A stretch of 64,000 bases of DNA from an uncultured Gemmatimonadota bacterium. GTDB lineage: Bacteria > Blakebacterota > Blakebacteria > Blakebacterales > Blakebacteraceae. Of the stretch, positions 59,201-64,000 are shown one piece after another. Both the position numbers and the translations under genes were made by a program. Below the pieces are notes generated by a model. That model saw only the letters and a program-made list of their open reading frames with translations, was not told the DNA's origin and searched no databases. Each line of letters begins with the position of its first letter. The first letter of the stretch is position 1. The stretch is taken from contig CAZNUA010000012.1 in NCBI GenBank assembly GCA_964576115.1, positions 1 through 64,000 on the forward strand, written 5' to 3'.

Positions 59201-59510
59201 GATGGGCCGGGAACTCTCGAGCCGGATCCGCCGTCTGGCGAGCGAGATATCGGGCTGGACGGGGCTCCCCACCACCGATCAGCTGAACGAGGAAGAGTAC
59301 TTCCGGGCGATGGTGGATACCCTGCGCGAGCGCCTGGAAGCCCTGCGGGAACGGCTCGGTGAGGCTGTGAAGCCCCGGCCGGGCCTTTCGGCCCCCGACC
59401 CCCCTCATCTCCCGGTCGGATTGAGGGATTGCGGGCGGGGATCCGAACGCGAGCTGCGTCAATTTGTTACACAGAGCTCTGAAGCGCGGGAATACGGACA
59501 TAACATGTAA
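56238..59510 (+). CDS. VPS10/sortilin-like BNR-repeat secreted protein (glycosyl hydrolase-like)
   Basis: IGPANMSGRV; repeated SxDGGxSW/STDxGxTW Asp-boxes; GGLQDNGSW; THGRGIWILD; AGGAGG RBS. Confidence 0.9.
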   Translation: MIAFSPVNRTCRGSARARRVTFIAFLLALALACGPGIVPGTVSRVAAQRAPDVSGELFGQLALRGIGPANMSGRVVDLAVFESDPTLFYVATATGGLWKTDNNGVTFTCVFEREAVHSIGAVTLCQTNPDLIWVGTGERANRQSSGWGNGVYRSTDGGRSWHNLGLRDSRHIGRIAIDPTDSDIVFVAAMGHLWGPNAERGLYRTTDGGRSWEQVLFIDDDTGVVDVAIDPDDPSIVYAATYQRRRRTFGFHGGGPGSGLWKSTDSGRNWCELTRGLPEGDKGRIGISIYRRDPRIVYVCVEQGWRYNASTAYGERRAGVYRSEDRGENFTHMSDWNPRPMYASQIYVDPNDDRRVYMQNSFSVSTDAGQTFHSISNSLHGDDRIVWVDPADSRHLIKGDDGGLGISWDRAESFLYLPHLPVSQFYRVGVDYAEPFNIYGGLQDNGSWYGPSATYRREGILNEDWIRTGGGDGFFNVPDPADERTLYTESQYLMLSRRDLVTGESQSIRPGDPHGAIGARRNWDAWGPGLPEPELGNAMAPANWDGPFILSPHDPQTVYAGTDTLWRSTDRGRTWTSLGDMTTGTNRRELLIMGQRPHDETLSLDDGIPYWPTITAIEESPDVRGLLYVGTDDGNLQVSADNGQTWTNVADRFPGLPGPRWVSDIEASHYRVGVVYAAFDGHRSDDNGNYLYRSEDRGQNWRSITGDLPPERVVRAVHEDPRNPEVLWLGTEFGCFVTLDGGGHWVELKNNLPTVAVNDLLVHPRDNDLVLGTHGRGIWILDNVNALQELTPGVVASPVHLFTIEPAVMIRLQSEKAHSGDMIFRGPNPPAGAIIDFWLSADDPADFSLEVLDAAGQWVADVRVRSPRRGINRAVWNLRCSPFYAGPGRERAERSGTSFLITPGEYTVRLQGGGTVCEQILEVSEDPRIPATTTERRAWTQKLLSLGDLIRDCGVLVQEINEAAPLAEALRESRRNRELKTEAAELQRMGRELSSRIRRLASEISGWTGLPTTDQLNEEEYFRAMVDTLRERLEALRERLGEAVKPRPGLSAPDPPHLPVGLRDCGRGSERELRQFVTQSSEAREYGHNM

Positions 59511-59597
59511 GTACTTTCATTGTATTTATGTTTTTTCGCGGTTTTTCCCTGTTTCTGAAGAGAGAGTTCCTTAGGTTGAAAATAACGTTCATCTTCC

Positions 59598-59725
59598 GCA
59601 GTCTCGGTACGGGGCGGGTTCAGAGTGGACCCGCAACCCGTCAGGCCCGCCCGGTACCCCGCGGGCTCTGCGAGACAAGTACCAGTATCCGAGCGCAATA
59701 CCCCCGTCAGGTCAGGTGCGACTGC
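59598..59725 (+). ncRNA. Candidate structured cis-regulatory leader (riboswitch-like) upstream of the lysine 2,3-aminomutase gene
   Basis: Nested stems GTCTCG/CGAGAC, GCGGGTT/GACCCGC and GCCCGC/GCGGGC; twice-repeated GTAC..GAG(T/C)G..CCCGTCAGG. Confidence 0.4.
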
Positions 59726-59779
59726 TCCTGTGCCTGTATACAGTGAACCACCACTCAGCCCCTCGAGGTGAATCACGTT

Positions 59780-61087
59780 ATGTCCCCGACAACCACGAAT
59801 CGTGAAACGGTCATCGAGAGAATCTGTGAAGACGGCGTCACCGCCGACTGGAAGGACTGGCGCTGGCAGATCAAGAACGCGGTGAGGGATCTCGACACCC
59901 TGCAGCGGGTTCTCGATATCACCTTCGACGACGAGGAGAGACTGGATCTGGAACGGACGGTGGCGAAGTTCCCCTTCTCAGCCACCCCGTACTATCTCTC
60001 CCTGATCGACACCGCCAATTACCGTAATGACCCGGTCTTCAAACAGGCGGTGCCCGATCCCCTCGAACTGATCACCGAAAACTGCGAGATGACCGATCCC
60101 CTGGCCGAGGACAAGGACAGTCCGGTGCCGGGGATTACCCACCGGTACTACGACCGGGTTCTGTTGCTGGTCAGCAACACCTGTTCGATGTACTGCCGCC
60201 ACTGCACGCGCAAGCGCAAGGTGGGCGATGCCGATTCGATCCCCACCCGCGATATCATCGACACCGGTCTCGACTACATCCGTTCCACTCCCCGGGTGCG
60301 CGACGTGCTGCTCTCGGGCGGCGATCCCCTCATGCTCAAGGACGAATACCTCGATTACATCCTGACCGAACTGGACGCCATCGACCACGTCGAGGTGGTC
60401 CGGATCGGAACCCGCATGCCGGCGGTCCTGCCCTTCCGGATCACCGACGAGCTGGTCGAGATGCTCAAACGTCACCACCCGCTGTGGGTCAACACCCACT
60501 TCAACCACCCCCGCGAGCTCTCGGGGTCAGCCCGAGCCGCCCTGGCCCGGCTGGCCGATGCCGGGATACCGCTGGGGAACCAGAGCGTGCTACTGGCCGG
60601 CGTGAACGACTGCCCGCGGATCATCAAGCGGCTCGGTCATCTACTGGTGCAGAACCGGGTCCGGCCCTACTACCTCTATCAGTGCGATCTCTCCGAGGGG
60701 CTGTCGCACTTCCGCACCCCGGTCGGCAAGGGGATCGAGATCATGGAGAACCTGATCGGTCACACCAGCGGGTTCTCGATCCCACGCTACGTGATCGACG
60801 CTCCCGAAGGTGGCGGCAAGATCCCGATTCAGCCCAACTACATGATCTCGCGCGGGACCAACAAGGTCGTCCTGCGTAACCACGAGGGCGTGATTACGGT
60901 CTACGAAGAACCCGACTCCTACCAGCAGACCTTCTGCGACCGCAACTGCGCCGAGTGCGAGCTGGAGCTCGATCTCGACGAGGCCGGCGAGTACACCGCC
61001 ACGGGGATCTACCAGCTTCTTTCCACCTGGGACGACACCATCAGCCTGACCCCCGAAGGAACAGAGCGCCTCGAGCGGCGCGACTGA
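59780..61087 (+). CDS. ablA: Lysine 2,3-aminomutase (radical SAM, PLP), AblA/KamA family
   Basis: [53 protein letters not shown] and DAPEGGGK; C-terminal [17 protein letters not shown]. Confidence 0.93.
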
Positions 61088-61096
61088 GAGGACCGC

Positions 61097-61588
61097 ATGA
61101 GCACCCGCATTCTCATCGTCGGCAGCTGGGCCAAGGAGCAGATCACGGTCGAGAATATCAGGCGCGCGGACGACTACGAGGTCCATGCCTGGCTCGACAC
61201 CAACAATCCCGGCATCACCGGTCAGGTGGACGGCTTCGAGATCGGCAGTCTGTATGCGATCGACGAGATCGTGGACTACGCCGTCCGGCAGACCGTCGAC
61301 CTGGTCCTGCCGACCACTGCGTCCCCGCTCTCGGCCGGGCTTGTCGATGCCCTCTCGGCCAAACAGGTGCCGGTCTTCGGTCCCGTCCGGGACGCCGCCC
61401 GGCTCGAATCGGACAAAGCCTGGACCCGCCGGCTGATGCAGAAGTGCTGTCCCGAGGCGATTCCCTCCTTCCGTGTCTTCACCGACCGGGACGAGGCCGT
61501 GGCTCATGCCCGCGAGCGCGACTTTGAAGTGGCCGTGAAGCCGACCGGTCTCACCGAAGGGCTCGGGGTCAGGGTTTTCGGCGATCAG
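61097..61588 (+). CDS. PurD-like ATP-grasp ligase with a divergent N-terminal motif (partial, runs into gap)
   Basis: ILIVGS, NPGI, PLSAGLVD, VFGP...AARLESDK and VAVKPTGLTEGLGV; GSWAKEQ replaces GSGGREH. Confidence 0.8.
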
Positions 61589-61688
61589 NNNNNNNNNNNN
61601 NNNNNNNNNNNNNNNNNNNNNNNNNNNNNNNNNNNNNNNNNNNNNNNNNNNNNNNNNNNNNNNNNNNNNNNNNNNNNNNNNNNNNNNN
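61589..61688. other. Scaffold gap (100 N, true size unknown)
   Basis: Run of N interrupting the PurD-like gene. Confidence 0.99.
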
Positions 61689-61689
61689 C

Positions 61690-62178
61690 ATGACCCTGAC
61701 AATCCGACAGGCCCGTGAGGACGATTTCCTCCGGGTTCATGCCTTCATCGACCGCTGTGAGATCCTCGTCACACATCCCGAACACGTCTATCGGATCATT
61801 TTGCGTTATTTCGCCGACAGCTGTTACGTGGCCGAGCGCGACGGCGAGATCGTCGGTTTCCAGATGGGCTTTCTCTCCCAGCGCCACCCCGGAACGTATT
61901 TCCTCTGGCAGATCGGAACCGATCCCGCCCTGCGTCGCCAGGGAGTCGGCCGGGCCCTGCTGGCGCACGCCGAGGAGGATCTGCGCGACAGCGGTTGCGA
62001 GCGGATCGAGGTCACCATCGATCCCGAGAACGTCGCGTCTGTCCGGATGTTCGAAAAACGGGGCTATGTCAATATCAGCCGCCGCGAAGGCGACACGGTC
62101 GAAGTGAACGATATGACAGCCGTGAAAGATTTCTACAGCCCCGGCCGCCACTTTGTCCTGCTCGAGAAGGTCCTGTAA
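61690..62178 (+). CDS. GNAT acetyltransferase, EctA-like
   Basis: YFADSCYVAERDGEIVGF, FLWQIGTDPALRRQGVG and TIDPENVASVRMFEKRG. Confidence 0.85.
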   Translation: MTLTIRQAREDDFLRVHAFIDRCEILVTHPEHVYRIILRYFADSCYVAERDGEIVGFQMGFLSQRHPGTYFLWQIGTDPALRRQGVGRALLAHAEEDLRDSGCERIEVTIDPENVASVRMFEKRGYVNISRREGDTVEVNDMTAVKDFYSPGRHFVLLEKVL

Positions 62179-62564
62179 GATACAGCCTGTCACAGGTCCG
62201 GGTACGGTCCAGACGATCCGGATGATCTCAGACTGTCTGACGGACTCGATGCCGGCGTGAAGAGCGCTTTCAACCGGCCGCTTTTCGCCAGCTATCTCCT
62301 GATCGTGATCCTGGTTCTGCTGCCGGTTCTGATACTCCTCTTCTGATCGGCGCCGTCGCCGGCTTCCTGTCCGCTCGATGGACCAGCCGGGTCGCGTTCG
62401 AAGGGCCCGCGATTTTCCGGTAACTATTTCGACCGTGGGATCGTTCAATACATCAGTTCGTGATATCACTTTCATAGGTCATGGCCGGGAACGTGGCCGG
62501 GAGCCAGACGAGTATCCTTCTCCTCTTTCGGTGCGACCGGGTTTCGAGAGTCAGGAGTCAGACG

Positions 62565-62909
62565 GTGAGCGGTATCGATAGTATTTACGGAACGGTCGAT
62601 CTGATGATCCTGCAGACGCTGCAGGCAGAAGGCCCGCTGCACGGCCTGGGGATCGCCGAGGAGATCCACCGGGTCTCGGAAACCGAGGTCAGCGTGGAAG
62701 ACAGCGCGCTGTACCCCGCTCTGCGCCGGCTCGAGGAGCAGGGTCTGATCGAGGGGGAATGGAAGATCTCCGAGCGCGGACGGCGGGCCCGGTTCTACGA
62801 TCTGACACCGCGCGGACGAGAACACCTCGATGTCCAGACGAAGGAATGGGCCCGGCGGGTGGGCGTCATCGGCCGCGTGCTCGGCTTCGGGGGGGTGAGG
62901 ATCCGATGA
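62565..62909 (+). CDS. PadR-family transcriptional regulator
   Basis: GTVDLMIL, LHGLGI, ALYPALRRLE and RRARFYDLT; AGGAG RBS before GTG. Confidence 0.92.
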   Translation: MSGIDSIYGTVDLMILQTLQAEGPLHGLGIAEEIHRVSETEVSVEDSALYPALRRLEEQGLIEGEWKISERGRRARFYDLTPRGREHLDVQTKEWARRVGVIGRVLGFGGVRIR

Positions 62910-64000
62910 AGAACCCTGCTGGCCGTACTGACCCTCGCCCTGGGCATCGGTTCGGTCACCGTCATCTTCAGCGTGGTGAACGCCGTGCTCATCAGACCGT
63001 TGCCGTACGAGGATCCCGACGGGCTGGTGCAGATCATGGAACGGGTCGAGACCGTCTCGCCCACGATACCGGTCTCGCAGGGTCTCTTCCTTGCCCTGCG
63101 GGAGCAGACCACCACCCTGGCCGGCCTGGCCGCTTCGGATTTCGTGACCTTCTCGGTGATCGGCGGAGAGGAACCCGTCCAGGAACCGGGGGTCATGACG
63201 ACGGCCGACTTCTTCACTCTTCTCGGCGCCCGCCCCGAACTCGGCCGCTTCTTCACCCGGGAGGAGGAAACCGCCGGATCGAACGGCGTGGCGGTGCTGA
63301 GCTTCGGTGCCTGGCAGAGCCTCTTCGCCGGTGATCCCGAGGTCATCGGCCGGCGGATCCGGTTGATCACGACCTACCAATACGGTCCGCCGCGCAGTCT
63401 GCCCGAGGAGGTGACCGTTATCGGCGTGCTCGGGGAGGATTTCGTCTCCCCGTACGGGAATACCCGTATCTTCGTTCCCCTGGGGATACAGGGGGAGCGT
63501 GAGAACAGGATGCACCAGTACCTCTGGCTTCTGGGGCGGCTTGGTCCCGGCACGACCGCTGAAACCGCCCGCGCCGAGATGGATGTGATCGTCCAGGGAG
63601 TCGATCCCCAGTTCAGGGGGACGAGAGGTAATGAAGACTGGGACAACGGCGTCACCCTGACCTCGTTCTGGGAGGTCCAGCGGGGATACCTCCGCAGCTC
63701 CCTCCAGATCTTCTTCGTGGCGGTAGGTCTGCTGCTGCTGGTGGGATGCGCCAATATCGCCAACCTGCTTCTGGCCCGCGGTNNNNNNNNNNNNNNNNNN
63801 NNNNNNNNNNNNNNNNNNNNNNNNNNNNNNNNNNNNNNNNNNNNNNNNNNNNNNNNNNNNNNNNNNNNNNNNNNNNNNNNNNTCTGCTGCTGCTGGTGGG
63901 ATGCGCCAATATCGCCAACCTGCTTCTGGCCCGCGGTGCCGGCCGCGGCCGGGAGATGGCCGTGCGGCTCGCCATCGGCGCTTCGCGCCGCCGGCTCGTC
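62906..64000 (+). pseudogene. ADOP-family ABC permease, 5' end deleted or frameshifted; partial at the window edge
   Basis: TLLAVLTLALGIG...NAVLIRPLPYEDPD...[17 protein letters not shown]...[10 protein letters not shown]; the coupled ATG 62906 is out of frame with this body. Confidence 0.7.
63783..63882. other. Scaffold gap flanked by an exact 55-bp duplication
   Basis: 63728-63782 is identical to 63883-63937. Confidence 0.95.

Follow-up and report, generated by a model that had tools for sequence, protein, structure and literature searches.

The dipeptide osmolyte N-acetylglutaminylglutamine amide is made by Ngg, a bifunctional protein that combines a GNAT acetyltransferase with an ATP-grasp ligase, and EctA, the L-2,4-diaminobutyrate N-gamma-acetyltransferase of ectoine synthesis, transfers an acetyl group to the distal amine of its diamino acid substrate. 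In the AblA/AblB pathway, which occurs in methanogens, Methanoperedens and some bacteria, the lysine 2,3-aminomutase AblA (KamA) is followed by the acetyltransferase AblB, and no ATP-grasp ligase is needed to reach the product, N-epsilon-acetyl-beta-lysine. A Methanoperedens enrichment accumulates N-epsilon-acetyl-beta-lysine under salt, and the Methanoperedens ynaI(mscS)-kamA-ablB operon is described as salt-induced, with 'genes of unknown function' 41 bp downstream of it (PMC11337218). Here, we describe a three-gene cassette from an uncultured Gemmatimonadota bacterium (assembly GCA_964576115.1, contig CAZNUA010000012.1, positions 1 to 64,000; this whole stretch of 64,000 nucleotides is referred to as the window). 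The cassette consists of kamA, a gene for a paralogue of the purine enzyme PurD (phosphoribosylamine--glycine ligase or glycinamide ribonucleotide synthetase, EC 6.3.4.13), which we call PurDL, and a gene for a GNAT acetyltransferase resembling EctA. On balance, we favour the interpretation that kamA, purDL and the GNAT gene are one operon turning L-lysine into an acetylated beta-lysine amide, which would be accumulated as a compatible solute. Our literature search on this cassette, on beta-lysine together with ATP-grasp ligases and on a PurD paralogue in such a role found no description.

All parts of the cassette lie on the forward strand. The kamA gene (59780-61087) encodes an AblA-type lysine 2,3-aminomutase of 435 residues, for which a GTG at 59768 is a second possible start, and a spacer of 9 nt with the ribosome-binding-site-like motif GAGGA (61088-61096, as read from the sequence) separates it from purDL. 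The 5' part of purDL, codons 1-164 with the Pfam domain GARS_N and the start of GARS_A, occupies 61097-61588 and runs into a scaffold gap of 100 N (61589-61688), beyond which stand the final 5 nt of the gene (61689-61693). Its TGA stop (61691-61693) overlaps the ATG of the gene for the 162-residue EctA-like acetyltransferase (61690-62178, Pfam Acetyltransf_1), the partner of PurDL, in the sequence ATGA. The first-pass annotation had proposed this order of kamA, a PurD-like gene after 9 nt and a 162-residue acetyltransferase past the gap, and all three genes are where it placed them; it had also cautioned that the link to the acetyltransferase depended on the scaffold join and that other genes might be hidden in the gap.

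That caution can be lifted. A database search with the PurDL fragment returned a protein of 440 residues, P0001, which is 100% identical to all 164 residues of the fragment and whose C-terminal 276 residues are found nowhere else in the assembly. Contigs of four public runs that carry the stretch (X1-X4, labelled as sediment and seawater metagenomes) run on beyond 61588 in frame and code for P0001 residues 165-174, and a contig reaching 61689 from the left codes for the final ten residues of P0001 and the TGA that overlaps the GNAT start. From these contig ends and P0001 it follows that what the gap replaces is 826 nt of purDL (1323 - 492 - 5) and no further gene; the 100 N are a fixed length, found in 85 of the 85 gaps of the assembly. 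The scaffold join is thus sound, and purDL and the GNAT gene are translationally coupled. The assembly may have been built from these four runs, and so their contigs close the gap and do not amount to an independent replication. The gap is without duplicated flanks, unlike both other gaps of the same contig, at window 63783-63882 and at C12 70162-70261. Those two have an identical 55-nt sequence on either side and hence are unmerged contig overlaps, not missing DNA, and the first of them creates an artificial break in a MacB/FtsX-type permease gene starting near 62973. Over part of the GNAT gene (window 61905-62086, 182 nt), a second contig of lower depth with 9 single-base differences is present in all four runs, and probably comes from a second strain in the samples.

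The association of the ligase with the acetyltransferase is conserved far beyond this genome. A locus scan with one genome per species gave 80 loci, 48 of the PurDL family, with 47-57% identity to the window ligase, and 32 controls with a canonical archaeal PurD (35-40% identity). By tblastn, the GNAT lies 3' of the ligase in 46 of the 48 family loci, the other two (L023 and L059) stopping at a contig edge. Ligase and GNAT form one reading frame in 21 of these 46 and are separate in 25, nine of which share the 4-nt overlap of the window. Upstream, an AblA-type kamA (63-71% identity) is present in 32 of the 48 family loci and directly adjacent in 28, with ablB (L024, L039 and L044) or an ABC ATPase gene (L050) intervening in the remainder. 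Neither a GNAT nor a kamA neighbour was seen at any of the 32 canonical PurD loci. The joint occurrence of the three genes in other genomes, for which the first-pass annotation had suggested a search, is therefore real and kept across phyla, often with the ligase fused to the GNAT.

PurDL loci are found in both archaea and bacteria, namely in Methanoperedens, Thermoplasmatales, Methanocellaceae, Promethearchaeia, Omnitrophota, Elusimicrobiota, Atribacterota, Calditrichaceae, KSB1, Acidobacteriota, Anaerolineales, Planctomycetia and Bacteroidota; the spread takes in many anaerobic sediment lineages with small genomes. Over 28 cassettes the pairwise distances of KamA, PurDL and GNAT correlate with one another (Spearman 0.55-0.68, Mantel p 0.001), although related rows, such as those of the Methanoperedens loci, inflate the correlation, and we read it as compatible with joint inheritance. 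Of five genomes lacking an adjacent kamA, four have AblA above cut-off elsewhere (762-784 bits) and the fifth, of 1.3 Mb, has a match of 509 bits. At two Bacteroidales loci (L061:2151-3347 and L064:6776-7972), the partner of the ligase::GNAT fusion is a divergent KamA-family protein that is shorter and scores 356 bits on the AblA model, under the cut-off, and purE and a phosphoribosyltransferase gene adjoin the locus. At a locus from a single-cell Euryarchaeota genome (L065:6612-7613), a gene for a ThrC-like protein (NCBIfam PRK06381, 368 bits) overlaps the ligase start, with CorA and MscS genes nearby.

The pattern of AblB gives the best indirect support for beta-lysine feeding the ligase and GNAT, and for these two being a route of their own. 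There is no match to AblB (TIGR03827) anywhere in the genome that holds the window, which is 93.7% complete. More broadly, AblB is found in none of the 16 genomes in which kamA directly abuts purDL (our own, G048, ten others and four Methanoperedens, with completeness given for our own only), and in all four of the genomes that have a stand-alone ligase-GNAT fusion and AblA elsewhere (AblB scores of 325-357 bits). In those four, kamA lies about 1.47 kb upstream of ablB. The contrast of 0 of 16 with 4 of 4 indicates that KamA is paired with AblB, with the ligase and GNAT, or, as in three Methanoperedens loci, with both. A hydrophobic, transporter-like open reading frame (ORF) of about 470-490 residues stands between kamA and ablB, for instance at L102 (G042:C14) and L104 (G045:C142), and the ablB match of G042 falls inside an open frame of 759 residues, which suggests a transporter::AblB fusion.

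The same three Methanoperedens loci give the cassette a physiological setting. Their gene order is mscS-kamA-ablB-purDL-GNAT, so that purDL and the GNAT gene are downstream of ablB in three of the three ablB-bearing Methanoperedens loci examined. The cassette and the AblA/AblB pathway have in common the first enzyme, an AblA equivalog, and a following acetyltransferase and, in Methanoperedens, the MscS context, the three loci combining both systems (PMC11337218 for the published operon). They differ in that the AblA/AblB route needs no ligase, whereas here a ligase is attached to the GNAT. When ORFs around the 48 loci were clustered, an MscS-type channel was the single further recurrent neighbour, at eight loci, seven of them from Methanoperedens. 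At the M. nitroreducens locus (L044), mscS, kamA, ablB, purDL and the GNAT gene stand in this order and are followed by a gene for a KamA-family protein of 604 residues, and a LEA/KGG stress protein is encoded nearby. The 604-residue protein (L044:9810-11621) also follows the GNAT gene at L036, L037, L039 and L066, all of Methanoperedenaceae; its radical-SAM core is of the KamA family (TIGR00238, 316 bits, under every equivalog cut-off) and lies behind an N-terminal extension of about 190 residues, and it may be a second aminomutase in the Methanoperedenaceae cluster.

KamA of the window reaches 733 bits on the NCBIfam model TIGR03820 (lys_2_3_AblA; cut-off 525.4), is far under the cut-offs of the glutamate, arginine and EpmB models, matches Pfam Radical_SAM and LAM_C, and reads CSMYCRHC at the CxxxCxxC cluster motif in translation. 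Against the solved L-lysine 2,3-aminomutase 2A5H the match is 491.8 bits over 377 aligned residues, with aspartates at both positions aligned to D293 and D330, the residues which we take to hold the lysine epsilon-amine. Among 12 relatives, no AblA was found above the cut-off. A genome of the same genus lacks the cassette: at L109 (G001:C155:5944-7890) it has a KamA that is shorter (48% identity) and is followed by an M20 peptidase gene, an arrangement resembling Bacillus kamA-yodQ. In our own genome, two ORFs (G000:C16:62709-63713 and C63:14586-15287) give weak matches of about 90 bits to the AblA model; they belong to no Pfam family at E 1e-5, are uncharacterised and radical-SAM-like, and similar matches occur in relatives.

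PurDL is a paralogue of PurD in a clade of its own, not the housekeeping PurD, as judged from sequence comparison. The fragment in the window matches TIGR00877 with 96 bits (profile positions 2-159) and full-length P0001 with 294.8 bits, while the canonical purD of the same genome, on contig C8, scores 523 bits (523.6 as protein) and shares 35% identity with the fragment. The proposal that the ligase is a re-purposed PurD copy, made before the rest of the genome was consulted, has thus gained the separate canonical purD that it called for, and canonical purD genes are present in four of five other carrier genomes as well (415-509 bits). Among the 120 proteins listed by a homologue search, 108 share 49-100% identity with the fragment, after which the matches drop sharply to at most 38%; 25 of the 108 are 601-640 residues long and carry a C-terminal GNAT domain. 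In 40 relatives, a search with the fragment matched only canonical PurD, at no more than 37% identity.

In a tree of 91 sequences, 47 PurDLs fall on one side of a branch with full support (SH-aLRT, an approximate likelihood ratio test, 100%; stem length 0.62) and 44 canonical PurDs on the other. The PurDL clade neighbours the archaeal canonical PurDs and is distant from the bacterial ones, and phyla and domains are mixed inside it, which suggests that PurDL was derived from an archaeal PurD. The tree is a quick search with a midpoint root, its canonical set was picked by shared sequence patterns, and it omits L059 (truncated) and L066 (frameshifted). In overall form, PurDL remains very like PurD: the Atlas model shows the three-domain fold (pTM, the predicted template modelling score, 0.91; TM 0.96 to clusters named PurD), and the best solved match is PurD 2YRW (172.5 bits). 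It differs in being a second copy, in its own clade and with a GNAT attached in nearly all of its loci. The 'PurD-like' haloarchaeal proteins of PMC3261824 are a different group, being described there as without GARS_N and without the motif aspartate.

The active site of PurDL appears to be conserved on one side and rebuilt on the other. Residue roles were mapped by aligning P0001 to solved PurDs, using published accounts of human GARS (PMC2978367) and Aquifex PurD (PMC8880213). The glycine-site residues Asp217, Arg292, Asp295 and Glu297 of human GARS correspond to D217, R296, D299 and E301 of PurDL, and Arg385 to R387, all of them invariant in the family. When the 47 PurDLs are compared with the 44 canonical PurDs, 53 positions, the ATP/Mg and glycine-site residues among them, prove to be conserved on both sides, and 11 are switched. 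From canonical PurD to PurDL, the switches are G to W11, R to K13, A to I16, G-P-E to T73-T74-A75, the B-loop K to L156, H to F218, G-G to A231-S232 and A to S372. The N-terminal loop consequently reads W-A-K-E-Q in place of G-G-R-E-H, and the start of the GPE helix reads T-T-A; W11 and K13 are present in 100% of PurDLs and G and R in 100% of the 44 canonical PurDs, and the lysine of the B-loop GLAAGK, likewise present in 100% of canonical PurDs, is L156 in 100% of PurDLs. In the PROSITE pattern PS00184, R-[LF]-G-D-P-E as quoted in PMC3261824, PurDL reads R-P-G-D-P-E, with P297 invariant. In human GARS, Arg13 and the start of helix 75-80 are at a sulfate site that was proposed to be the site of the product phosphate, Glu14 was suggested to orient the ribose of phosphoribosylamine, and the B-loop GLAAGK is conserved among the GARS enzymes compared there (PMC2978367). 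The conserved glycine site means that acyl-phosphate chemistry on a small amino acid looks intact, and the switched positions indicate that the pocket side assigned to the phosphate and amine substrate has been rebuilt. With an invariant glycine site and a rebuilt phosphoribosylamine side, beta-lysine may be the amine acceptor of PurDL rather than the activated acid.

The acetyltransferase belongs to a family that, by sequence criteria, is small and distinct. It matches Pfam Acetyltransf_1 at E 1.8e-22, and EctA (TIGR02406) is its best NCBIfam model, at 74.5 bits and under the cut-off of 120.6. EctA also provides the nearest solved structures, 6SJY and 6SK1 (70 bits) and 3D3S (54 bits), whereas BLASTP against a Methanoperedens AblB gave no significant similarity (E 0.17), and AblB, with a model of 266 positions, appears unrelated to this shorter protein; the view of the first-pass annotation that the GNAT is nearer to EctA than to AblB agrees with these scores. 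The acetylation of a distal amine by EctA offers a plausible analogy for beta-lysine. The GNAT differs from EctA in its score under the cut-off and in a conserved C-terminal tail beyond the general EctA-like matches. Twenty-six family GNATs, following PurDL or fused to it, are 42-56% identical to that of the window and have distinctive motifs in common, including this tail. In a profile search of 1.84 billion representatives, 31 clusters were found at E 1e-30 or better and reach the profile end (position 146-160), with some of the listed members being N-terminal fragments, and the weaker matches listed mostly cover only about positions 1-122. EctC (PF06339) was unmatched in our own genome, as it was in the control genomes, which were silent for this family too. 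Complex prediction for PurDL and the GNAT (alignments A2 and A3) scored 0.00 against a mark of 0.32, and speaks neither for nor against binding.

We propose the following series of steps. KamA would make beta-lysine, as expected from its family membership. PurDL would then act as an ATP-grasp carboxylate-amine ligase forming an amide bond that involves beta-lysine. Most economically, glycine or a similar small amino acid would be converted to the acyl phosphate and then passed on to one of the amino groups of beta-lysine, with beta-lysine taking the place of phosphoribosylamine; conversely, the carboxylate of beta-lysine might be activated and joined to another amine, in which case its beta-amine could fill the site of the glycine amine. 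The cassette has no further conserved biosynthetic gene, and a common metabolite should therefore serve as the second substrate. The GNAT would acetylate a remaining free amine, leaving a net-neutral zwitterion, and such a product would suit a compatible solute. Its use as a compatible solute in saline settings, in place of the AblB route or alongside it, would be the final step; this osmolyte role draws on the Methanoperedens context, the alternation with AblB and the marine and sediment labels of the runs, and is the least secure step. A more specific version, which we hold only tentatively, is that PurDL makes N-glycyl-beta-lysine and the GNAT caps it, giving acetyl-glycyl-beta-lysine (C10H19N3O4, [M+H]+ 246.145) as a new dipeptide-type solute in place of or beside N-epsilon-acetyl-beta-lysine. 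The arrangement recalls Ngg in that an acetyltransferase is fused to an ATP-grasp ligase for an N-acetylated dipeptide-type solute. This is an analogy only, since the cassette and Ngg differ in ATP-grasp lineage, domain order and substrates, and matches to TIGR03103 are weak (26-29 bits), with no meaningful sequence relationship.

Several observations weigh against the operon and product that we favour. No kamA lies within the flank in 12 of the 48 loci, four others (L045, L061, L064 and L067) have a divergent KamA-family gene upstream (35-49% identity), and L065 has a ThrC-like pyridoxal-phosphate enzyme in place of kamA. Besides MscS, no conserved transporter or stress gene stands beside the cassette at the 48 loci. 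Glycine as the co-substrate was chosen from residue conservation alone. PurDL also scores above the equivalog cut-off of the purD model (294.8 bits; cut-off 288), and G049, a genome of 1.8 Mb for which completeness is not given, shows the paralogue only and no other PurD, so PurDL may have residual PurD activity. The last two facts, with the retained glycine-site residues, are also what would be expected if PurDL were a spare or stress-adapted PurD isozyme linked to its neighbours by chance, with the GNAT substituting for AblB and the product being N-epsilon-acetyl-beta-lysine. Since AblB is missing from all 16 kamA-purDL genomes, some consumer of beta-lysine is needed, and the GNAT could be that consumer. 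Unrelated jobs for ligase and GNAT are hard to square with their being together in nearly every locus and fused in almost half of these, and the 11 switched positions, near-invariant in canonical PurD, include the N-terminal loop and the B-loop lysine. Moreover, genomes with kamA-ablB keep the fusion nonetheless, and the three Methanoperedens loci have ablB and this GNAT in the same cluster. We therefore regard an isozyme linked by chance as improbable.

Somewhat less improbable, though still unlikely in our view, is a beta-lysine-containing product that serves other ends than osmoprotection, such as a bioactive peptide with the GNAT for self-protection, a signal or storage compound, or a modification of the envelope or of a protein. 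Beta-lysine amides are generally known from antibiotics, 40 of the 48 loci are without MscS, and most have no osmotic-stress neighbour. Yet the cassette has just three genes, with no exporter, regulator or extra tailoring gene conserved alongside; its carriers include many anaerobic sediment lineages whose genomes are small, it alternates with AblB among genomes, and in Methanoperedens it sits inside an mscS-kamA(-ablB) osmolyte cluster. That kamA might serve lysine fermentation or catabolism, as KamA-type enzymes do in starting clostridial lysine fermentation, with the two downstream genes unrelated to it, seems to us very improbable. KamA is an AblA equivalog, and its linkage to purDL and the GNAT gene is kept across phyla. 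As for the lysine-fermentation genes, which had not been visible in the window on first reading, our own genome has no match to the beta-lysine 5,6-aminomutase family PF09043, for which the control genomes are silent too, and none to the BKACE/Kce family PF05853. An operon leading from L-lysine to an acetylated beta-lysine amide thus remains the interpretation that we prefer.

The surroundings of the cassette in the window are seemingly unrelated to it. Upstream is a gene for a Sortilin/BNR-repeat protein of 1103 residues, and 3' of the cassette follow a PadR-family regulator (62481-62909) and a MacB_PCD permease (62973-63782), apparently an efflux-type pair. The cassette has a G+C content of 62.6% and the window one of 65.4% on average (standard deviation 2.9%, in 2.3-kb segments), which gives no signal of transfer for the cassette. 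Among the sequencing runs listed as carrying this DNA, none is of RNA. A scan of 59300-62700 for promoters and terminators found no promoter-like site and no terminator 3' of the GNAT gene, and was uninformative.

If the proposed pathway is correct, the cassette would make a new beta-lysine-derived metabolite for osmoadaptation, and PurDL would illustrate clearly how a core enzyme of purine synthesis can gain a new function. Should the product be acetyl-glycyl-beta-lysine, its users would be anaerobic methanotrophic archaea, Omnitrophota, Elusimicrobiota, Atribacterota, Acidobacteriota and others. Since P0001 is just above the TIGR00877 cut-off, the sources and the Atlas label such proteins phosphoribosylamine--glycine ligase, and metabolic reconstructions built on this annotation may count a purine step that is perhaps absent and miss this pathway. 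This matters because the carriers, Methanoperedens and many candidate phyla among them, are environmentally important and mostly uncultured.

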